Shown here one piece after another: positions 34,679-52,185 of a stretch of 64,000 nt of DNA. The stretch comes from an uncultured Acholeplasmataceae bacterium. Its GTDB lineage: Bacteria > Bacillota_I > Bacilli_A > ML615J-28 > CAG-698. The position numbers and the translations under genes were made by a program. How positions within the stretch are numbered: position 1 is the first letter of the stretch; every line of letters begins with the position of its first letter. Location: assembly GCA_963542825.1 (NCBI GenBank), contig CAUTZD010000003.1, positions 6,804-70,803 of the forward strand. The letters are read 5' to 3'. Below the pieces are notes generated by a model. The model saw only the letters and a list, made by a program, of their open reading frames with translations, had not been told where the DNA came from and did not search any database.

Positions 34679-35362
34679 ATGGATAAATTAGAAACCCTAA
34701 AAAAAGCTAAAGCTGAGGTTATTCAATCATTCGCGCCAACTAACGAATTTTTAGCAAAATTTATTACTAGTCAATTTGGGTTTGAGGAAGATGGATTAGA
34801 TGAAATTGAAGTTTTGAAAGTTCTCGAAGATAAGAAATCAAAACTTACTGTCCAAATGCAAAAAGGTATTTTAAACGAAAAGGAAGCCTTTTTGAAAATT
34901 TTCGATATGGCTAAACAAGGTGAAGACATGGATGAAAAACATTTAAAAGATATTCACGCAATCTTGCTAAAAGATTTAAATCCTCTTGGAGGACTATATC
35001 GCCAGGTAAATATTAGTGTTAAAGGCAGTTCGTACATCCCGCCTCATTTTTTAAAAGTGTATGATAAAATGAATAAATACTTTGTTGAAACTTTAAATCC
35101 GTTTGGCAATTTATATGAAAACATCAGTTATGCTCACCTGCAGCTAACAAAGGTTCGCCCATTTATTGATGCCAATGGCCGCCTTGCAAGAATTGTACTT
35201 AACTATCATCTCATTAAAAACGGTTTTCTACCAATTATTATTAACCATAAAAAACCTCAAGAATACTTTGCTTTACTTGAAGAGTTCAAAGTCCAAAAAA
35301 ACATTAAACCGTTTGTTGAATATTTAATAAAAGAAGAAGCTCTCGTTTTGGAAGCTTTATAA
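34679..35362 (+). CDS. Fic/Doc-family protein with a degenerate active-site motif (RPFIDANGRLAR)
   Basis: Fic fold signature ...AYAHLQLTKVRPFIDANGRLARIVLNYHL. The canonical HPFx[DE]GNGRxxR has His replaced by Arg and the first Gly replaced by Ala. Confidence 0.75.
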   Translation: MDKLETLKKAKAEVIQSFAPTNEFLAKFITSQFGFEEDGLDEIEVLKVLEDKKSKLTVQMQKGILNEKEAFLKIFDMAKQGEDMDEKHLKDIHAILLKDLNPLGGLYRQVNISVKGSSYIPPHFLKVYDKMNKYFVETLNPFGNLYENISYAHLQLTKVRPFIDANGRLARIVLNYHLIKNGFLPIIINHKKPQEYFALLEEFKVQKNIKPFVEYLIKEEALVLEAL

Positions 35363-40682: not shown

Positions 40683-40890
40683 ATTTCACCTACCTAATTT
40701 ATAACTTAGGTTTTATTATACTTTAGATTAAGCAAAAATGGGAAGTTTTTTACTTATCAACATGAGGATAAAAAACAAGGTTATGGAATACTTTTTCACC
40801 ATTTTATAATCATTTTATGAATGTGGAAAAGTGGAAAAGTTTTTGATGCAAAGATCTTTCTTTTATGGTATATTAAAACGAGACAAAATA
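40683..40890. other. Probable oriC segment / dnaA control region
   Basis: Gene-strand polarity switches here. DnaA-box-like 9-mers: TTATCAACA around 40757 and tandem TGTGGAAAA/GTGGAAAAG at 40822-40839. A further TTTTCCACA lies just after dnaA at about 42311. Confidence 0.5.
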
Positions 40891-42300: not shown

Positions 42301-42374
42301 TTATTAACTTTTCCACACTCATAATAATAAAAGTAATTTTATTATTCAAATTAATAAACAAAAAGGCTTTAAAA

Positions 42375-43502
42375 ATGAAATTTAAAATTAAAACTTCTTA
42401 TCTTTTAAATAATTTAATACCTGTATCTAAAGCTGTATCAAGGAACATTCAAATGCCGGTGCTCACTGGCATTAAGTTTGATGTAAAAAAAGATACAGTC
42501 GTCCTTTCAGCGACCAATAACAGCGAGCTTTCGATTCAGGCAAAACTTCAAGCAAACGAGGATTTAATAATCGAAGAAACAGGAACAACGGTAATATCAG
42601 CTAATGTGTTATTAAACCTTATTAAGAAAATCGAAGAGAAATGGTTAAATTTTAGTTTATTTGAAGAAAAAACACTCAAAATTTACAACGAAAAAGGTAA
42701 TTATAGTATTAATCAGTTTGATCCTGAGTATTTTCCTAATATTTCTTTTATAGCTTCTGATAAAAAACTCAGTTTATCAACAGTCGTTTTTAAAGATATT
42801 ATCAAAAAAGCAACAATTGCTGCTAGTGAAAGACTCGGTGATGGTGTTTTGACTGGTGTTAATTTAACTATTGATAATAAAAAAGTAATCTTTTCAGCAA
42901 CAGATAGTTACCGATTATCGCGAAAAATTATCGACCAAACTGATGAATTTGAAGATGTTAGTGTCGTAATACCTGCAAAATCCTTAGAAGAAGTAGGAAG
43001 GATCTTAGAAGATGAGAAAGGAAAGGTTGAATTATTCTTCAAACCTTCAAACGTTATCATTAAATATAAGAATATTCACATAAAACTAACAGTTATTGAA
43101 GGTAAATATCCTAAAACTGATGTTTTTATTCCTAAAAAATACACAAACGGTTTTGTTGTTAGACGATCAGACTTATTAGCAACGATTGAGCGAATGAATA
43201 TTTTTATTGAATCTGATAGTTCTAAGATGATAAAAATCCAGTTAAATAACCAAAAAGTTCTTGAATTTAACTCTTCAACAACAGAAACCGGAGGGGCACA
43301 AGAAAAGCTTGAACCGATAGAAGTTGATAATGACACGCCATTTATTGTTGCTTTCAGTGCTAAATACTTTCATGAAGCGATAAAAATCTTCGATGGTGAA
43401 CTAATTAGCCTCAAATACACAGGCGAAGTTAAGCCTTTTGTCTTCACATCTGAAGGTGATGAGAATTTTATTCATTTGGTTTTACCAATGCGGCGTCCAT
43501 AA
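42375..43502 (+). CDS. dnaN: DNA polymerase III beta subunit (sliding clamp)
   Basis: 375 aa with three-domain clamp architecture. Sits immediately after dnaA. Confidence 0.9.
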   Translation: MKFKIKTSYLLNNLIPVSKAVSRNIQMPVLTGIKFDVKKDTVVLSATNNSELSIQAKLQANEDLIIEETGTTVISANVLLNLIKKIEEKWLNFSLFEEKTLKIYNEKGNYSINQFDPEYFPNISFIASDKKLSLSTVVFKDIIKKATIAASERLGDGVLTGVNLTIDNKKVIFSATDSYRLSRKIIDQTDEFEDVSVVIPAKSLEEVGRILEDEKGKVELFFKPSNVIIKYKNIHIKLTVIEGKYPKTDVFIPKKYTNGFVVRRSDLLATIERMNIFIESDSSKMIKIQLNNQKVLEFNSSTTETGGAQEKLEPIEVDNDTPFIVAFSAKYFHEAIKIFDGELISLKYTGEVKPFVFTSEGDENFIHLVLPMRRP

Positions 43503-43535: not shown

Positions 43536-44345
43536 TTACTTAACAACATTTTTATTTGGTTTAAATTTAAAACGACTGTAAATATCTTCTAAATCTTTCT
43601 TTAATTCTTCAAACATGCTTTTATCATAAGGTTTTAAAGGGAGATTATCATCATAAACACTCCATCCTTCTGATTGAATGTTTTTAATTATCGATTTATC
43701 ACGTAAAGCTGGTAATAAAACTGCTTTTTTCGTGAAATCTTTAACTTGCTGTTCCAAATGTTCTAAGGAAACTTGTGGAGCTCGTTTGTTTTTAGCGTAT
43801 CCATTAGGAACAACATACTTTACTTTGTCTAAATCGAGGTCTTTATCCACAAAATACTGGATAGTGTTAAAGAATCCATCAATTCCTAGACTATCAAGAC
43901 CAACAACAACAATGATTTCATCACTTATTTCTAATAAAACTTCAGTTAAACGGCAGCCAGAAGGTGGAAAATCAATAAAAACATAATCAAAACCATTAGC
44001 ATATTCCTTAACCGCTTCAATAACTTTCTTTTCGTAAGGTCTATTTAATGTTATTTGCATAGAAATCTGATCTGTATTGAGAGTTTTAATTAAATATAGG
44101 TCTTCACGAGCTTCAATTAGGATGTCTCCTTCATATTTATCACCAGTTAATAGGTGTTCAAAGAAATTATCGACGTTTTCGTCGATCTTTTTTTCAACTC
44201 CAAAGACTTTAAAGACACTATTTTGGTCATCTGAACTTAAAATTAGTACAGTATTTCCTTTTTTAGCGAAATAATGAGCTAAATAACTAAGAATTGTGGT
44301 CTTTCCGACCCCGCCTTTTCGGCAATAAGCAGATATAATTGGCAT
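43536..44345 (-). CDS. ParA/MinD-family (Soj-like, short type-Ib-like) P-loop ATPase
   Basis: Deviant Walker A CRKGGVGKTT, A-prime ILSSDDQ, Walker B YVFIDFPPS. 269 aa with no N-terminal HTH. Confidence 0.8.
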   Translation of the reverse strand: MPIISAYCRKGGVGKTTILSYLAHYFAKKGNTVLILSSDDQNSVFKVFGVEKKIDENVDNFFEHLLTGDKYEGDILIEAREDLYLIKTLNTDQISMQITLNRPYEKKVIEAVKEYANGFDYVFIDFPPSGCRLTEVLLEISDEIIVVVGLDSLGIDGFFNTIQYFVDKDLDLDKVKYVVPNGYAKNKRAPQVSLEHLEQQVKDFTKKAVLLPALRDKSIIKNIQSEGWSVYDDNLPLKPYDKSMFEELKKDLEDIYSRFKFKPNKNVVK

Positions 44346-44347
44346 AA

Positions 44348-44674
44348 TTAGCGTCCTTCTCTATCTAATTTCTCACGACAAGCTTCTTCTATGTAGTCAG
44401 AAATCTGTAAACCATAGGTTGCAGCAGCAATTTTGAGCCTTCTTCGTAGGTTTACGTTCATAGTTGCGGTGTATTTTTCCCGAATTTCTCCACTATCCTT
44501 TATAGGTTTTGTAGCTTTAACGGGTTTTGGTTCAGGATTTTCGACCTTTTGTGTGAAAAAAGGCGGGTCTTGCTCGATTTTTTCGGGTGTAACAGCCGTT
44601 TTTTCGATCGTTTTTTGGATTTCATTCTCCATTGGGTTTGATCTTTTCTTAAATGGTAGGGGTTTATTAGCCAT
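44348..44674 (-). CDS. Small ribbon-helix-helix (ParG/CopG-like) DNA-binding protein with a disordered K/P-rich N-terminus
   Basis: C-terminal 40 aa YTATMNVNLRRRLKIAAATYGLQISDYIEEACREKL matches the beta-strand/helix/helix RHH pattern. Stop is 2 nt before the ParA ATG. RBS AGGAGG. Confidence 0.55.
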   Translation of the reverse strand: MANKPLPFKKRSNPMENEIQKTIEKTAVTPEKIEQDPPFFTQKVENPEPKPVKATKPIKDSGEIREKYTATMNVNLRRRLKIAAATYGLQISDYIEEACREKLDREGR

Positions 44675-44734
44675 TTTTTTGCCTCCTTTTTTAGGTTAAT
44701 AAAATTTTGATCATTTTTCTTTAAAATGCGTATA

Positions 44735-44826
44735 TATACATAAAACCATATTTACGTATATGTTCTTATACATAAATAAATATATAAATATATACATATT
44801 TACATTTATACATAAAACCATATTTA
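44735..44826. repeat. Two exact 20-bp direct repeats TATACATAAAACCATATTTA (44735-44754 and 44807-44826) immediately upstream of the RHH gene
   Basis: Read directly from the sequence. Related inverted TATGTATA / AAATAAAACCACTTTTATTTA copies occur at 45090-45165. Confidence 0.7.
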
Positions 44827-45169
44827 TTTTTTGATTCTAAAGCGCCTATTTTTTCAAAAAACAAAGTAAATTTTTGCAATTTTTGTGTTTTGATCAACAG
44901 ATTTTGGGTATTTCATCGGAAAATATCTTCTGATTTTAAAAATTAGCCCGAAAATCGCTTTTTAAATCGCTTTTTTCGCCAGTGTAAGAAAATTACTCAG
45001 GTTTGAGGCTAAAAATTATCACAGAGCCCGAAAGAAAGTTTGAATTTTTTGCAAACAGCTGTTAAAAGAAGATTTTTTGTTTTATTTACATAAATATGTA
45101 TTTATGTATTTATTGTTTTATGTATATAAATAAAACCACTTTTATTTATTTACACATAGCCATAATACC

Positions 45170-46270
45170 ATAAAAAAATACCCTGTCAACAGTTAATTTT
45201 TGGTGGTTATTTTAAGATCATAAACAAGAGGTTAAAAAAGTACCTAAAAAATGGATAAAAAAGCCCGTTTTTAAGCATTATTAAGCAAAAACAAGCAAGA
45301 ATCGGCTTATTTAATAAGAATTTTCTCAAAAATTAACAGTTCTTAAAAATACTCTTCCTTATATATATACAAAAAAGGCACAAAAAAGTTAAAATGCCGC
45401 TTTTTTGTGTTTTTTAGCTCTAAAACAACCAAAAAATATGAAAAAACATAGCTTTTTACCCGTTTTAAGGCTGTGTTTGCCCCTTTTTACTGGTTAAAAT
45501 CAATTTAAAATATAAAAAATGCTGTTTTTTATTAAAAAATCTCTCTTTTTTAGCAGAAAACCATCGAAAAAACAGGCGAAAAGTAGTTAAAATACGATTT
45601 TTATCACTAAAAACACAAAAATTGCAGAAAAAATACGACAAAATCATCATATTTTTGCCTAAAAACGATCTTTTTTATGTTAAAAAAAGGAAAAATAATA
45701 AGAAATGCCTAAAAAGCAGGTATAAAACACAAAAAAAGATGCGAAAATTTAGCAAAAACAAGCGTTTTTTTGTTAAAAAATGGCCAAAAGAGCAAGAAAG
45801 CAGCTGTTTTTAGATCTAAATAACAAAAAACGCCCAAATTTACGCAAAAATCCAGTAAAAAAGTAGCTGGATTAACTTGAAAAAGTTTAAGAAAACCAAA
45901 ATCATTAACCAGTAACTAATTTTTTAAGTGTTTTTGACTAAAAAATCCAAGAAAAGTACATAAAATCATCAAAAAACACTGGATAAAGTATAAGCAATTG
46001 GATTTTAAGAAGAAAATGCTGTTTTAAACACCAAAAAAGCTTAAAAAAGAGGATAAAAAGTGTAAAAATGTTAATAAGTTGTGGAAAACTAGCTACTTTT
46101 TAGTATGTTTTAATAATATTAAAAAATACGCCCCAAAAAATCCAAAAAATTGCTGATTTTTGAGAGAATTTATGGTAAAAAACAGCCACAGAAAACCATT
46201 TTTTATTAAAAATGAGGAAAACTTTCAAAAACTAACGTTTTAAGGCTTAAAATCACATATTTTTATGGAA
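45170..46270. repeat. 1.1-kb gene-free array of helically phased A-tracts (degenerate 21-bp period), strongly A-rich on the plus strand
   Basis: A4-A7 runs recur every 10-11 bp, for example starting at 45557, 45567, 45579, 45589, 45608, 45617, 45628, 45640, 45661, 45682, 45691. There are recurrent words AAAAAATACG(A/C)C, GAAAATGCTGTTTT and GAAAACCA. One DnaA-box-like TGTGGAAAA lies at 46081-46089. Only low-complexity K-rich ORFs are present. Confidence 0.6.
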
Positions 46271-46325
46271 AAAAGTGAAGATTTATAGTAATATGATATA
46301 TATAAGGAAGAAAAGGACCAGAGGA

Positions 46326-46535
46326 ATGAAAGAAATAAAAATAACTACTGAATACATTACTTTAGGTCAATTTCTAAAGTTTTCTGGTGTCATTTTAAAT
46401 GGTGGCGAAGCGAAAAATTTTATTGCCAATAGCACAATAAAAGTCAACGACCAAATCGTAAAAGAACGCGGGAAAAAGCTGAGAAATGGTGATTTGATAG
46501 AAATCCATAAGGAAAAATATGTCATCAGAAACTAA
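46326..46535 (+). CDS. yaaA: S4-domain RNA-binding protein YaaA
   Basis: MKEIKITTEYITLGQFLKFSGVILNGGEAKNFI... (69 aa). In the B. subtilis-like dnaN-yaaA-recF position. The start was moved to the internal ATG with an AGAGGA RBS. Confidence 0.7.
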   Translation: MKEIKITTEYITLGQFLKFSGVILNGGEAKNFIANSTIKVNDQIVKERGKKLRNGDLIEIHKEKYVIRN

Positions 46536-46536
46536 G

Positions 46537-47604
46537 ATGTATCTAAAATCTGCGAAAATTGTTAATTTTCGTAATTATTTTGATAAAACATTCGATTTTT
46601 CACCTAAAATGAACATAATTGTTGGCGAGAACGCCGTTGGGAAATCGAATTTAGCTGATGCAATCAGCGTTTTAGCTTCTGCCAAGAGCTTTAGATCAAT
46701 AAAAGACCCGTTTTTATTAAAGAAAGAAATGCCTTTTTATCGTTTAGAAGGCCATTTTTTAAGAAATGGATTAGAATCTAAAAGAATTGTTATGTTTGAT
46801 GGCGAAAAAAGGATTCAAAAAGTTAATGATAACTTGTTAAAAACTAGTGAATATCTTGGAGAAATAATTCCCGTTGCTTTTACCGCTGATGATTTGTTAA
46901 TAATTAAGGGAAGTCCAAGTGAAAGAAGGCGGTTTTTAGATTTAATTTTGTGTCAAATTGACAAGGAATACCTGAAAAACCTCGTTCACTACCAAAAAAC
47001 TCTTAAAGAGCGCAATATTTTTCTGAAAAACCCCGGAAAATCACCATATAATCGTTCTTTTCTTGTGAGTTTGACAAAATACTTGCTTACAACCGCAAAG
47101 CCTATAATCGAGAAAAGAAAGGTCTTCATTAGTGAGTTAAACGAGGAAATTAAGCCGTTTTTACAGGATTTAGCTATCGATCAAGACATTTTTCTTGAAT
47201 ACTTACCAAATATCGTAGGAGAAAACCTAGAAAATTATCTAGAAACGTTGATTCAGGCAGACATTTTAGCGAAAAAAACGACCTTTGGTATTACAAGAGA
47301 CGAGCTTAAAATTGCGGACGCTAAAGGTCTTGTTATGAATGTTGCTAGTCAAGGGCAAATTCGGGCAGTTGCTTTGGGATTAAAACTGGCAGCTGCGAAG
47401 ATTTTAGAGAAGAAAAACTATGAAATTATTATCATTTTAGATGATGTTTTGAGTGAACTTGATAAGGTTCGCCAGGACAATGTTCTGAAACTTATTCCAA
47501 AAAACGTGCAAACATTTATTACAACAACATCTACTAATGAAATAAATGATGAAATACTTAAAAATAGCCATCTAATATATATCGAAAGAGAGGAAAACAA
47601 ATGA
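46537..47604 (+). CDS. recF: DNA replication and repair protein RecF
   Basis: [14 protein letters not shown]..., Walker [11 protein letters not shown]-terminal signature region. Start at the ATG 1 nt after the yaaA stop. Confidence 0.9.
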
Positions 47605-49520
47605 GTGTAAAAGTAGAACAACAGTATAAAGCAGATGATATTCAGATTCTTGAGGGTTTGGAAGCGGTTCGAAAGCGTCCCGGAATGTACATTGGGTCGA
47701 CAGGACCACGTGGACTCCACCATTTAGTCTGGGAAATTGTCGATAACTCGATCGATGAGGCGTTAGCTGGCTACTGTAGCGAAATTTTAGTGGAAATTTT
47801 ACCAGGAGATATTATTAGAGTTACAGATAATGGCCGGGGAATTCCGGTTGATATTCACCCAAAAACGAAAAAGAGTGCCCTAGAAGCGGTTTTTTTAACA
47901 CTTCATGCCGGCGGAAAGTTTGGCGGTGGCGGATATAAGGTTTCTGGTGGTCTTCATGGTGTTGGTGCGAGCGTTGTTAATGCTCTTAGTGAACAACTCC
48001 GAGTTGAAGTATATAAAAATGGAAAAATTTATGCGCAAGAGTACACGCGAGGGAAAAAACTTAACGAAGTAACAGAAATTGGTGAAACAAAGCTTCAAGG
48101 AACGCGTGTTACATTTAAACCAGACCCAGAAATTTTTAAAGATACAACTGTTTTTGATTTCGAAACTTTATCTTTTAGGTTGCAACAATGTGCCTTTTTA
48201 AATAAAGGTTTGTGTATAACTTTAAATGACACAAGAAAAGAAGGAAAAGAGAAAAACGTCAAGTATCGCTATGAAGGCGGTATTAAAGAGTATGTTGAAC
48301 ACATCAATAAGGGTAAAAAAGTTATTCATCCAGCAATTATTTATGTAAGTGGTGTGATGGAAAATATTGAAGTCGAAATAGCGATGCAGTATACGGAAGA
48401 ATATAACAGTTCCATCCTTTCGTTCATCAATAATATTATTACTCCAGAAGGTGGAACTCACGAAGAAGGTTTTCGGTTGAGTCTTACGCGTGTACTAAAT
48501 AATTATGGTAGGCAAGCCAAAATATTTAAAAAAGATGAGGGTTTGTCTGGAGATGACGTCAGAGAAGGCCTTACTTCGATTATTTCTGTACGCCATCCCG
48601 ATCCACAGTTTGAAGGACAAACAAAATCAAAACTTGGAAATACCGAAGTCCGGAAAATTGTCAGTCAAATCCTGAGTGATGGCCTTGAGCGTTATTTAAA
48701 TGAAAATCCCCAAGATGCGCGAAATATTGTTGAGAAGGCTTATATTGCTTTACAAGCGCGAAACGCTGCCAAAAAAGCGCGTGAGGCTACCAGAAGAAAG
48801 AATCCGCTCGATGCCCTCGATTTTGCTTCGAAACTTGCTGATTGTCGAAATAAAGATCCAGAACTATGTGAAATTTATATCGTTGAAGGAGATAGTGCGG
48901 GAGGTAGCGCAAGACAAGGAAGAGATCCCGAATTTCAAGCCATATTGCCACTTCGCGGTAAAGTTTTAAATGTTGAAAAAGCTCGTCTTGATAAAGCGTT
49001 AAGTAACAAAGAAATCATTTCGATGATTAGAGCTTTTGGTTCGGGTATTAGTGATGAATTCAATCTTGAAACACTAAGATATCATAAAATCATTATTATG
49101 ACTGATGCCGATGTTGATGGTGCACACATTAGAACACTACTTTTAACTTTCTTTTACCGCTATATGAAGCCGCTTGTCGAGCAAGGGTATGTTTACATCG
49201 CTCAGCCGCCACTTTTTAAAGTGGTATTTAATAAGAAAATTTATTACACATATACAGATGATGAGATGGAAAGACTGTTAGCGTCGTTCCCTAAAAACGC
49301 CCGTCCGGCAATTCAACGCTATAAAGGACTTGGTGAAATGAATCCTGATCAGCTTTGGGAGACAACAATGAATCCAAAAACGCGGACACTTCTTCAGGCA
49401 ACCGTTGCTGATGGGCTTGAAGCCAACATGGTTTTTAGTATGCTGATGGGAGACGATGTTGATCCACGGCGTGATTTCATCGATAAGAATGCGAAATTCG
49501 CAAGCAATATAGATGTATAG
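47601..49520 (+). CDS. gyrB: DNA gyrase subunit B
   Basis: GHKL ATPase and Toprim motifs ([40 protein letters not shown]). Confidence 0.97.
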
Positions 49521-49530
49521 GAGACATTAA

Positions 49531-52185
49531 ATGGCGGTAGATGATAATATAAAAAACGAAGATCACGATTTTGAAGAACAAAAGTTTGATGAAATCGACG
49601 ATTCCGAACTAGAACGTGACCAAAAAGAGCGCGAAGAAGGCGATCTTGGGATCAAAGAAGTTGATATCTGCCGGGAAATGAAGAACTCATTTTTAAGTTA
49701 TGCGATGAGTGTTATCGTTTCGCGGGCGCTTCCTGATGTTCGTGACGGCTTAAAACCTGTTCATCGGCGAATTCTTTTTGGGATGAGTGAACTAAGTGTA
49801 TTCCCCGACAAACCGTATAAAAAGAGCGCGAGAATTGTCGGTGAAGTCATGGGTAAGTTTCACCCTCATGGTGATACAGCAATATATGATGCGATGGTCA
49901 GAATGGCTCAGGACTTTAACTATCGGCATACTTTAGTTGATGGTCATGGTAATTTTGGATCACTCGATGGTGATGCGCCGGCAGCGATGCGGTATACCGA
50001 AGCACGCCTTAGTAAAATTGCGATGGAGATGCTTAGGGATTTACAAAAAGACACCGTCAATTTCATCGATAACTATGATGGAACCGAGAAAGAACCAGAA
50101 GTTCTCCCTTGCCGTTTTCCAAACCTTCTTGTCAACGGATCAACAGGAATTGCCGTTGGTATGGCAACGAACATTCCTCCTCACAATTTAGGAGAAATTG
50201 TTGATGGAATTCTCGCTTTAATTGACAATCCAGGAATCGATGTTGATGGGCTCATGAACTATATTAAAGGTCCTGATTTTCCAACAGGTGGGGAGATTAT
50301 GGGGCTTGCGCAAATTAGGCGCATGTACATGCAAGGTGAAGGAACACTTGTTGTCAGAGCGAAAGCGGAGATTCATCAGCTTGCTTCTGGAAAGTCAGAG
50401 ATTATTGTTACGGAAATTCCCTACCAAACAAACAAAGAGCGACTTATCGAACGGATTGCCGAATGTGTTAAGGGCAAAATCATCGACGGAATTACTGATC
50501 TACAAGACCATTCCGGAAGACAAGGAACGCGGATTGTTATTGAACTTAGGCGCGATGTTAATCCAAATGTTGTTTTGAATCAGCTATATAAGCACACGTC
50601 ACTGCAAACAACTTTTGGGGCGAATATGATTGCTTTAGTTAACAACGAACCAAAAACATTGACGCTTAAGGAAATGCTTGAGTATTACTTAAAACACCAA
50701 ATCGAAGTAATAACAAGAAGAACGCAGTTTGATTTAGATAAAGCTGAAGCACGAGCCCATATCGTCGAGGGTCTTTTGATTGCTCTTGCAAGTATCGATG
50801 AAGTTGTAGCTGTTATCAAATCAAGTAAAGACACAGAAACAGCTAAGCGTGGTCTAGTTTCAACATTTAGGTTAACCGACATTCAGGCGCAAGCTATTCT
50901 TGATATGCGCTTAAGTAGATTAACTAGTTTAGAAGTTGATAAACTTCGTGATGAACTAGCTGAACTTAAGAAATTTATCAAAGAGTGCCGTGATATTTTG
51001 CGTAGTGAAAACAAAAAACTTAAAGTTATTGTTGGTGAACTTACAGAACTTAAGGAACGCTTCGCTAATGAGCGTAAGTGCGAAATAAACCTAAAAGAGT
51101 TAACAGAAATTGCCGATGGTGATCTCATTCCAGTTCAGGAGACGCTCATCACAATCACAAACACTGGTTATATTAAACGCTTAACTGCTAATACGTATAC
51201 TAGCCAAAACCGTGGTGGTAAAGGAATTACGGGAGCTAAGCTTGTCGAAGATGATTATGTGCAGCAGGTTATTTTTACATCAAGTCATGATAATTTATTC
51301 TTCTTTACGAATATGGGGTCGGTATTTAAACTTAAGGCTTTTCAAATCCCTGTCTATTCACGGACGAGCCGCGGGACGCATATCAACAATCATTTGAATA
51401 TGCAAAAAGGTGAAAAACTCAATGCAGTTTTACCAATTCCTGATGACCTTGAAAAGGATCATTATCTTGTATTTATTACCCGCAAGGGTATTATTAAAAG
51501 AACACCGCTCAGCGAGTTTCAAAATATCCGTACTAATGGTATTAGGGCGGTCAATTTAAATGAAGGTGATGAGCTCTTTAAAGTTGGTTTAACCGATGGT
51601 GATAAGGATATCATTTTAGGAGCATCAAACGGTAAAGCTATCAGATTCTCTGAAAACGATGTGCCATCGATGAAGCGAGTAGCGGCTGGTGTTAGAGGTT
51701 TAGATCTTTTTGAAAATGAACAAATTGTTGGTATGGCAATTGTCACAACAGATGGCGATGAGATTATTATTGTTACTGAGTTCGGTATCGGCAAGCGTAC
51801 CCCTGTAAGTAGTTTTAGACTACAAAAGCGAGGCGGGCGCGGCTGTAAGTCTTTAAGTATCACCGATAGGAGCGGTTCAATGGTTGCTCTTGAAACTGTT
51901 CGTGGTGACGAAGATCTCTTCATCGTTAGCGATAAGGGAATGGTTATTAGAACTCCGCTATCGCAGATTTCAACTTTTGGACGCGATGCTAAGGGTGCCA
52001 AACTTATGGAACTTAATGAAGGACAACGCGTTAGTCATATTGCTATCGTTCCAAGTGAAGAAAAGATCAATGAATTTGAAAATCTTCAGCTCGATAGTGA
52101 TTATAAATTCCTCGATGAACGTGACCAAGAAGATTCTGAAGAAGAAAATCATGAGCAAGACGAAGAAGATTATAATTTACTGTAG
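49531..52185 (+). CDS. gyrA: DNA gyrase subunit A
   Basis: Active-site region [11 protein letters not shown]-terminal beta-pinwheel repeats. Acidic tail [23 protein letters not shown]. Confidence 0.97.

Follow-up and report, generated by a model that had tools for sequence, protein, structure and literature searches.

The 64,000-nucleotide stretch of DNA analysed here (the window), from an uncultured Acholeplasmataceae bacterium, is a chromosomal origin region, with yidC and rnpA on the minus strand. Between a small ribbon-helix-helix (RHH)-ParA operon and the operon yaaA-recF-gyrB-gyrA it carries about one kilobase of helically phased A/T tracts (the array), in which the periodic signal is coherent across ~100 helical turns (~1,050 bp). 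The array is most likely a structural DNA element and not a gene. Our preferred reading, to which we give a probability of about 0.4, is that it acts as a pre-bent architectural scaffold for an origin-proximal partition complex. The phasing, the anatomy of the locus and the conservation of the surrounding hub are established, and we infer RHH binding to the neighbouring repeats, activity of the flanking promoters and a role for the curvature.

The plus strand of positions 45170-46270 consists of 45.5% A, 28.9% T, 13.0% C and 12.6% G, and the GC content of the array is 26%. Runs of at least four bases number 86 in the array (60 A-runs and 26 T-runs, with a maximum length of 7), and the distance from one tract to the next is 9–12 bp in 61% of cases and 19–23 bp in 11%. 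The Fourier spectrum of AA/TT dinucleotides over 45170-46270 showed a single dominant peak at 10.4 bp with a normalised power of 67.5, compared to a 99th percentile of 13.5 and a maximum of 18.4 in 300 dinucleotide-preserving shuffles. Over 45230-46270, the optimum period was 10.35 bp (power 122), and the AA/TT phase was 66–119 degrees in every successive 208-bp block. A+T reaches up to 95% at the tract phase, and G+C reaches up to 55% half a turn away, in antiphase. The top 15 periodic 300-bp windows of the entire 64 kb all fell inside 45251-46300, and the median AA/TT power elsewhere in the 64 kb was 3.5. An initial annotation of this DNA had claimed helical phasing at 10–11 bp, beyond that of ordinary AT-rich intergenic DNA, and both points were borne out. 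It had also described a unit of ~21 bp and a set of recurrent words, which did not hold: the spectrum had no peak near 21 bp, Tandem Repeats Finder (TRF) gave one 21-bp repeat of 2 copies, and the words occur 1–4 times each. The strand asymmetry that it called extreme is present, but moderate (AT skew +0.22).

Three static wedge models, on whose parameter values all of the curvature figures depend, predicted a bend of 15–17 degrees per turn for the array vs. 6–7.5 degrees for controls, in agreement with the strong curvature that the initial annotation had expected. The predicted radius of gyration was 15–28 nm, compared to ~80 nm for controls of equal length, and the summed predicted turning of 1550–1750 degrees corresponds to 4–5 circles. 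Handedness of the coil was model-dependent, with a writhe of −3 to −5 in two wedge models and +2.3 in the third. As modelled, bare array DNA should coil into ~4–5 loops of ~210–230 bp with a radius of ~12 nm. The helical repeat reported for A-tract-rich DNA is close to the 10.35-bp period of the array, whose curvature may therefore be nearly planar. With its phased tracts and a predicted curvature above that of bulk DNA, the array is predicted to be intrinsically curved.

The excess of A over T is not matched by an excess of G over C, which makes it specific to the tracts: the GC skew of the array is about −0.02, vs. +0.15 to +0.19 in the flanking right-arm DNA. Common strand biases of replication or transcription are inadequate to explain A > T for the same reason. 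The surplus of A-runs over T-runs (60 vs. 26) is unnecessary for curvature, and a polar function for it is conceivable.

The periodicity of the array is not that of a repeat. TRF yielded 2-copy fragments only, and the in-phase identity of 0.357 compares with 0.355 expected from phase-specific composition; a tandem repeat or minisatellite was rejected on these grounds, and the iterons of the initial annotation fell with them. Autocorrelation lags of 93, 185 and 279 drew attention to a 93-bp (nine-turn) super-period, but this was non-significant against a phase-composition null, the highest in-phase identity (0.404, at lag 93) falling short of the 0.409 that marks the simulated 95th percentile. 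The array was likewise rejected as a set of iterons or degenerate RHH sites: ACATAAAT-type repeats, which mark the putative centromere, are not enriched in the array but occur at chance level, and the array is not made of centromere-binding sites. The word AAAT[AG]C is mildly enriched (9 vs. 2.0 expected), and the inter-tract spacers are otherwise unconstrained. Since sequence homology between turns is absent and the spacers are free, what is maintained is shape, not motif. A coding gene or pseudogene was rejected as well. The only open reading frames (61 and 63 aa) match no Pfam family above threshold, and the period-3 power is 1.4, vs. 8–15 in neighbouring genes. The initial annotation had regarded these reading frames as artefacts, with which we agree, and had named a decayed pseudogene as the finding that would overturn it; we found neither coding periodicity nor a Pfam family. 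Copies of the array in plasmids, another of its suggestions, did not materialise, as BLASTN against plasmids and phages gave no match.

The array occupies most of a 1651-bp non-coding gap between the RHH gene and yaaA (Table 1). The predicted leftward promoter at its left boundary has 11 of 12 consensus matches plus an extended −10, and it faces cluster R, the conserved element, cluster L and the RHH-ParA operon. The yaaA promoter was called by its position and its similarity to the conserved promoter of relatives, its match in the window being weaker. All promoters were predicted from consensus and conservation. Judged from sequence, the array is the expanded spacer between two divergent predicted promoters of a conserved regulatory/centromere hub. 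The ACATAAAT-type motif clusters in this gap and nowhere else in the 64 kb. The leftward promoter lies ~500–700 nt upstream of the RHH start, and a transcript from it would therefore cross both repeat clusters. In two relatives (L008 and L009), a hairpin plus T-run follows the leftward promoter, which hints at a short transcript or an attenuator.

Table 1. Features of the origin region, the partition module and the gap that holds the array (window coordinates).
Feature	Position	Strand	Description
Probable oriC around dnaA	40754..42317	.	DnaA boxes, AT-rich stretch, box density in 17 relatives, GC-skew switch
dnaA	40831-42300	+	
dnaN	42375-43502	+	
ParA ATPase, 269 aa	43536..44345	-	Small Walker-type; no N-terminal DNA-binding domain
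RHH protein, 108 aa	44348..44674	-	Putative centromere-binding protein
Cluster L	44725..44829	.	8-bp TATACATA/ACATAAAT repeats directly upstream of the RHH gene; putative operator and centromere site
Conserved non-coding element, ~190 nt	44907..45088	.	Phased A/T tracts, GC-rich centre
Cluster R	45064..45172	.	8-bp ACATAAAT/ATTTATGT-type repeats, inverted vs. cluster L; putative RHH binding sites
Predicted leftward promoter	45162..45189	-	TTGACA, 16-nt spacer, TG-n-TATTAT; consensus and conservation
Helically phased A/T-tract array	45190..46265	.	86 tracts, period 10.35 bp, predicted curved coil of ~4-5 turns
Predicted yaaA-operon promoter	46266..46294	+	TGGAAA, 17-nt spacer, TAATAT; right boundary of the array
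yaaA	46326-46535	+	S4_2 domain
recF	46519-47604	+	
gyrB	47601-49520	+	
gyrA	49531-52185	+	

The RHH protein is built of an N-terminal PFKKRxNP peptide, a variable linker, and a C-terminal R-x-KYTATM strand followed by two helices. It matches Pfam RHH families weakly, below their cut-offs, and the RHH profile of the clade matches the solved RHH protein 2kel (E = 4e-8). In an AlphaFold2 (AF2) model, the C-terminal helices span residues 74-87 and 93-106, with a predicted local distance difference test score (pLDDT) of 75–84; Foldseek on the AF2 monomer found no structural match. ParA matches Pfam AAA_31 at 8e-23 and also CbiA, and its nearest solved structures are Soj/ParA. Its identity to plasmid ParAs does not exceed 27%, no plasmid match was obtained for the RHH protein, and the exact ParA sequence has no match on record. 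The small ParA and the adjacent small RHH protein with a flexible N-terminal tail fit a type Ib-like partition locus, and the repeat clusters L and R, putative RHH binding sites, adjoin the operon and are conserved clade-wide. The pair reads as a chromosomal type Ib-like partition module. Because it is conserved in relatives and distant from plasmid ParAs, with an RHH protein that lacks a plasmid match, it is taken to be a long-standing part of the origin region and not a late arrival from a plasmid. The initial annotation had named plasmid centromeres and iteron origins among the sites that such DNA marks; a partition-locus neighbourhood is indeed present (RHH and ParA genes, repeat clusters, oriC ~3–5 kb away), but an iteron array is not.

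A 10.5–10.6 bp AA/TT periodicity with a power of 20–27 was also seen at 44250-44700, which takes in the RHH gene and the 5′ part of parA, and in five relatives (L008, L009, L013, L016 and L017) the most periodic window of the locus falls inside parA. This may be a codon signature of amphipathic helices rather than a matter of DNA shape.

Relatives of the ParA were sought with one genome per species, which gave 30 loci with 53–60% ParA identity, all in metagenome-assembled genomes labelled Acholeplasmatales, Mollicutes, Tenericutes, Bacilli or 'Coprobacillus CAG:698'. A metagenome scan added 28 further loci with a close ParA relative (53–61% identity). The order gyrB-recF-yaaA-[0.8–3.2 kb non-coding]-RHH-ParA-dnaN-dnaA was found in all 30 genome loci, the set that was examined for it. 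In nearly all loci, even those from genomes of 45–51% GC, the most frequent 8-mers of the gap come from the ACATAAAT/TATACATA motif. The relatives' RHH proteins have in common the PFKKRxNP peptide, a variable linker, an invariant R-x-KYTATM strand and two helices. A counterpart of the leftward promoter (TTGATTT-N14-TGTATAAT) occurs at the same position in 16 related loci, ~200–280 nt to the right of the conserved element. The yaaA promoter of the relatives, CT(A/G)GAAAA...TGTGGTATAAT, lies ~55 nt upstream of yaaA with A-tracts before it.

Of 25 intergenic regions searched with nhmmer, 22 contain the ~190-nt element, in every case on the same strand. In the alignment it is present in L023 (9293-9490) and 19 others, flanked by the two repeat clusters of opposite orientation. 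The sequence of its core is AAAATTTCG-n-TT-n-AAATCGATTTT ... GGTAAA-n-TTATTAG, followed by a GC-rich and often palindromic stretch (CCCCCGGGGG) and AAAACAA, and several loci have 10-bp palindromes in it (CGAAATTTCG, AAATCGATTT). The element is the only alignable non-coding block. RNAalifold found no pairs in it and hence no consensus RNA structure, and Rfam did not match it. Another dimeric regulator may use it as an operator, or it may form the apex of a loop.

Reading substitutions and indels in the array would take close relatives, and the genome and metagenome scans found none, the best ParA identity being 61%. One 924-bp contig (L061, Logan SRR30995285) is ~96% identical at the nucleotide level to window positions 44300-45122; because it stops inside cluster R, the array of this sister strain cannot be compared.

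The equivalent spacers of the relatives, measured between the divergent promoters, range from ~110–160 bp (L003, L026 and L030) to >2 kb and are unalignable between genomes. In 10 of 13 long spacers, AA/TT nonetheless peaks at 10.3–10.5 bp with a power of 14–36, which persists after motif masking and even at 41% GC. In 16 of 24 loci, the most periodic 600-bp window of ~20 kb fell in the gap, which makes up only ~10% of that length, and several metagenome loci are alike, with AA/TT power up to 52. The A-rich strand is the same throughout, the sign of the AT skew being shared by all 15 related spacers. The spacer is thus conserved in its phasing but not in its sequence, which suggests that selection acts on DNA shape and speaks against a neutral relic. 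Within this series, the array of the window is the extreme (power 105–122, about two to four times that of any relative).

Putative RHH sites are usually found at 4–19 per kb in the spacers of relatives; their density is lowest in the window array (1.9 per kb, chance level). The clusters of relatives that correspond to cluster L have super-periods of 32 and 40 bp. Locus L002 (8000-9100; intergenic 850-1800 in window orientation) contains ~12 composite sites (ATACATAAATACATAAATATGTATA) 33–116 bp apart, with almost all distances at multiples of ~10.5 bp (Rayleigh R = 9.2, N = 15), which would place all of them on one helix face. It is the only relative in which helical phasing of motif clusters was convincing, and it is a site-based version of the A-tract design of the window. 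Because of the sites in relatives' spacers and the one-face arrangement in L002, the spacer is assigned to the partition locus. Recent tandem duplications of 126–189 bp units with repeat motifs were seen in L001 (724-971), L006 (797-1077) and L009 (821-1219; all intergenic coordinates), and the spacer appears to grow through unit amplification.

These spacers also bear on the idea that the array has no present function and is either a decayed array of RHH sites or an old minisatellite, with its A-runs retained by mutational bias. Growth of relatives' spacers by tandem duplication of 126–189 bp units, the wide variation in their length (0.1 to >2 kb) and an A > T excess in the same direction as the leading-strand bias of left-arm intergenic regions are what such a relic would predict. 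We regard it as improbable: residual repeat homology is absent, yet phase has been kept for ~100 turns, and neutral substitutions and indels would erase phasing equally fast. Phasing at 10.3–10.5 bp in 10 of 13 unalignable relatives is a further objection, and with a GC skew of ~−0.02, vs. +0.15 to +0.19 in the right-arm flanks, the A > T excess of the array does not come from strand bias.

In every relative the A-rich strand is also the sense strand for the operon downstream. This shared orientation could instead point to transcription across the array, yielding either a non-coding RNA rich in A or an extended 5′ leader for the yaaA operon, and a weak rightward promoter-like pattern (TTGAAA/TAtAAT) lies inside the conserved element. 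However, Rfam searches of the window and five relatives, at gathering and permissive thresholds, gave no match in the intergenic region and otherwise chance-level E-values. Terminator-like sites are absent from the array, promoter-like ones are fewer than in its shuffles, and its folding z-scores of −1.8 and −2.8 are only slightly better than those of shuffles. The conserved yaaA promoter stands directly upstream of yaaA, the sequence of the array is not conserved between relatives, and phasing at 10.35 bp with antiphase G+C belongs to duplex DNA rather than to RNA. Transcription as the purpose of the array is therefore very improbable.

In the scaffold reading, the RHH protein would bind repeat clusters L and R and, like other RHH centromere binders, would then make a wrapped, spreading nucleoprotein complex. 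The pre-bent kilobase would compact and shape this origin-proximal complex for ParA, a coil ~25 nm across beside the repeat clusters being a natural scaffold. DNA designed for maximal curvature or wrapping classically looks like the array, which is phased coherently over 1 kb, far beyond chance, with its G+C in antiphase, and the R-x-KYTATM strand of the RHH protein and its putative DNA motif are both conserved clade-wide. In ordinary Firmicutes such as Bacillus subtilis, the dnaN-yaaA gap is short, which suggests that the long spacer comes with the RHH-ParA insertion. The conserved basic N-terminal peptide of the RHH protein resembles, by analogy, the ParA-stimulating tails of type Ib centromere binders. 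The RHH centromere binders SegB, omega and ParR wrap or spread into superhelical complexes, with SegAB arcs and rings measuring 30–35 nm (PMC8682754).

Several observations weigh against a partition scaffold. Matches to the ACATAAAT-type motif in the array at ≤1 mismatch (2+2) are at the level expected by chance (2.4+1.1), and any RHH contact within it would therefore be non-specific. Across relatives, motif density and periodicity are not correlated (rho −0.11). The three relatives with only ~110–160 bp between their promoters indicate that the spacer is dispensable for partition in the clade. The phased segment of relatives tends to adjoin the yaaA promoter, which fits a promoter role equally well. 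The strand asymmetry is also left unexplained by a scaffold.

That position next to a promoter fits a topological element. The array could pin or store negative supercoils and so insulate the yaaA-recF-gyrB-gyrA promoter from the partition promoter, or act as an extended version of a bend-type supercoiling sensor and activator. It stands exactly between the near-consensus leftward promoter and the conserved yaaA promoter, where divergent promoters generate negative supercoils, and one of these two promoters drives gyrB and gyrA. In most relatives phased A-tracts lie directly upstream of the yaaA −35, the phased segment often adjoins that side, and the constraint is on shape alone, with no motif. 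The intrinsic bend of Streptococcus pneumoniae PgyrA is a supercoiling sensor and activator (PMC4096756), and a divergent promoter inhibits PgyrA through the supercoiling that it causes (PMC6170449). Intrinsically curved DNA holds plectonemes in place upstream of promoters (PMC6301789), and kilobase-scale 10-bp periodic DNA of C. elegans is described as a mechanical/topological insulator (bioRxiv 10.64898/2026.08.08.743475). On the other hand, one kilobase is about ten times the length used by known bend-dependent promoters, three relatives hold both promoters ~110–160 bp apart, RHH-type sites populate the spacer in relatives, and supercoiling sensitivity of the yaaA promoter is an assumption. 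We consider a topological element, the strongest of the rival explanations, rather unlikely, although it is compatible with the scaffold reading and the two are not exclusive.

Both ideas meet in a more speculative picture, which we hold to be doubtful. Here the array would be a sequence-encoded DNA solenoid of about five turns, in which ~100 in-phase tracts work as a mechanical part without site-specific recognition. It would be the spring or spool of a ParA/RHH centromere and at the same time a supercoil capacitor that decouples the partition and gyrase operons, a prokaryotic counterpart of the periodic An/Tn cluster (PATC) insulators of C. elegans.

A nucleoid-associated protein, either HU or a bridging or wrapping protein, might also use the array as a platform to organise the origin domain independently of Par. 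DNA wrapped on a protein is expected to have a narrow minor groove at each turn on one face and G+C on the outside, which is the pattern here, A-tract periodicity correlates with DNA-bridging nucleoid proteins across genomes (PMC3940949), and the array is close to oriC. We judge such a platform quite unlikely, as no candidate protein was identified in the window and the feature is positionally tied to the RHH-ParA hub in all relatives.

Proximity to oriC raised the further question of whether the array itself belongs to the replication origin, serving as a DNA-unwinding element or as an origin of the iteron type. GC skew changes sign at 41–46 kb with its cumulative minimum at 45–46 kb, and the region is AT-rich (26% GC), both of which would suit an origin. 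DnaA boxes are concentrated at dnaA. A cluster at 40754-40830 lies directly upstream of dnaA, and the 74-bp dnaA-dnaN gap holds one box and an AT-rich stretch (42309-42317 onward). Across 17 relatives, box density per kb falls from 12 in the dnaA-dnaN gap to 5.8 upstream of dnaA and 0.8 in the large gap. From this clustering in the window and the relatives, oriC is placed at dnaA as the probable site, 3–5 kb from the array. Within the array only one box was found at ≤1 mismatch, and iterons are absent. With the box densities of the relatives, this led to rejection of the array as a DnaA-box cluster or oriC. A-tract DNA is also rigid and makes a poor unwinding element compared with TA-rich DNA. 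An origin function of the array, which the initial annotation had linked to flanks of unwinding elements, accordingly deserves hardly any credence.

Elsewhere in the window, no soj/spo0J genes adjoin jag-yidC-rnpA. A Fic/DOC-family gene at 34679-35362 (+) is the sole plus-strand gene of the minus-strand block left of the origin, and two open reading frames of 330–336 aa without a Pfam family adjoin it.

Among known systems, the module is most readily compared with type Ib partition loci (ParF-ParG/parH of TP228, delta-omega/parS of pSM19035) and archaeal SegAB. These likewise pair a small Walker ParA with a small RHH protein bearing a flexible basic N-terminal tail, and likewise have short direct and inverted repeat clusters next to and overlapping the operon promoter region; it is RHH binders of this kind that wrap or spread into superhelical complexes (PMC8682754). 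The module of the window differs in being chromosomal, between dnaN and yaaA near oriC, and conserved in 30 genome loci. Its gene order is RHH then ParA, its repeats are 8 bp, its ParA is ≤27% identical to plasmid ParAs and its RHH protein has no plasmid match. It is also joined to a kilobase of phased A-tracts without specific sites. In ParR-parC segrosomes (R1, pSK41), the sites of an RHH protein are arranged helically, and the bound protein forces the centromere DNA into a superhelix that serves as a scaffold. Those systems use exact iterons of 10–20 bp over ~100–160 bp and the actin-like motor ParM, whereas in the window the bend is encoded in the DNA and the motor is ParA.

Kinetoplast minicircles, bacterial 'A-tract clusters' and curved DNA upstream of promoters have the same physical basis as the array, namely runs of 4–7 bases at the helical period giving ~17 degrees per turn. 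Known bacterial examples of phased A-tracts span ~50–200 bp. The array departs from such classical bent DNA in staying in phase for ~1,050 bp (~100 turns) and in being unique within the 64 kb. The bend of the S. pneumoniae gyrA promoter is another case, from a low-GC Gram-positive lineage, of curved DNA that precedes the promoter of a gyrase gene (PMC4096756). That element lies within 126 nt of the start site, whereas the array is ~1.1 kb long and the operon is yaaA-recF-gyrB-gyrA. The PATCs of C. elegans are likewise kilobase-scale 10-bp A/T clusters and are proposed to act via DNA mechanics, respond to supercoiling and insulate genes (bioRxiv 10.64898/2026.08.08.743475). They occur in eukaryotic chromatin and derive from Helitron minisatellites, unlike the array, which is in a bacterial origin region and has no detectable repeat ancestry.

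What helically phased A-tracts do in prokaryotic chromosomes is still called unclear (PMC3940949). Prior evidence on them is mostly statistical and genome-wide, and the window presents a single extreme and sharply bounded case, with ~100 coherent turns against an otherwise non-periodic genomic background, at a defined address beside oriC, between a chromosomal ParA/RHH partition operon and the gyrase operon. The analysis also brings out a clade-wide chromosomal RHH-ParA module; literature searches, in an incomplete library, gave no account of either this module or any similar bacterial array. More than 50 related loci make up a natural gradient, in which the spacer is first absent, then rich in sites and finally, in the window, pure curved DNA. 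With this series, the question of what sequence-encoded curvature does in bacteria becomes directly testable.

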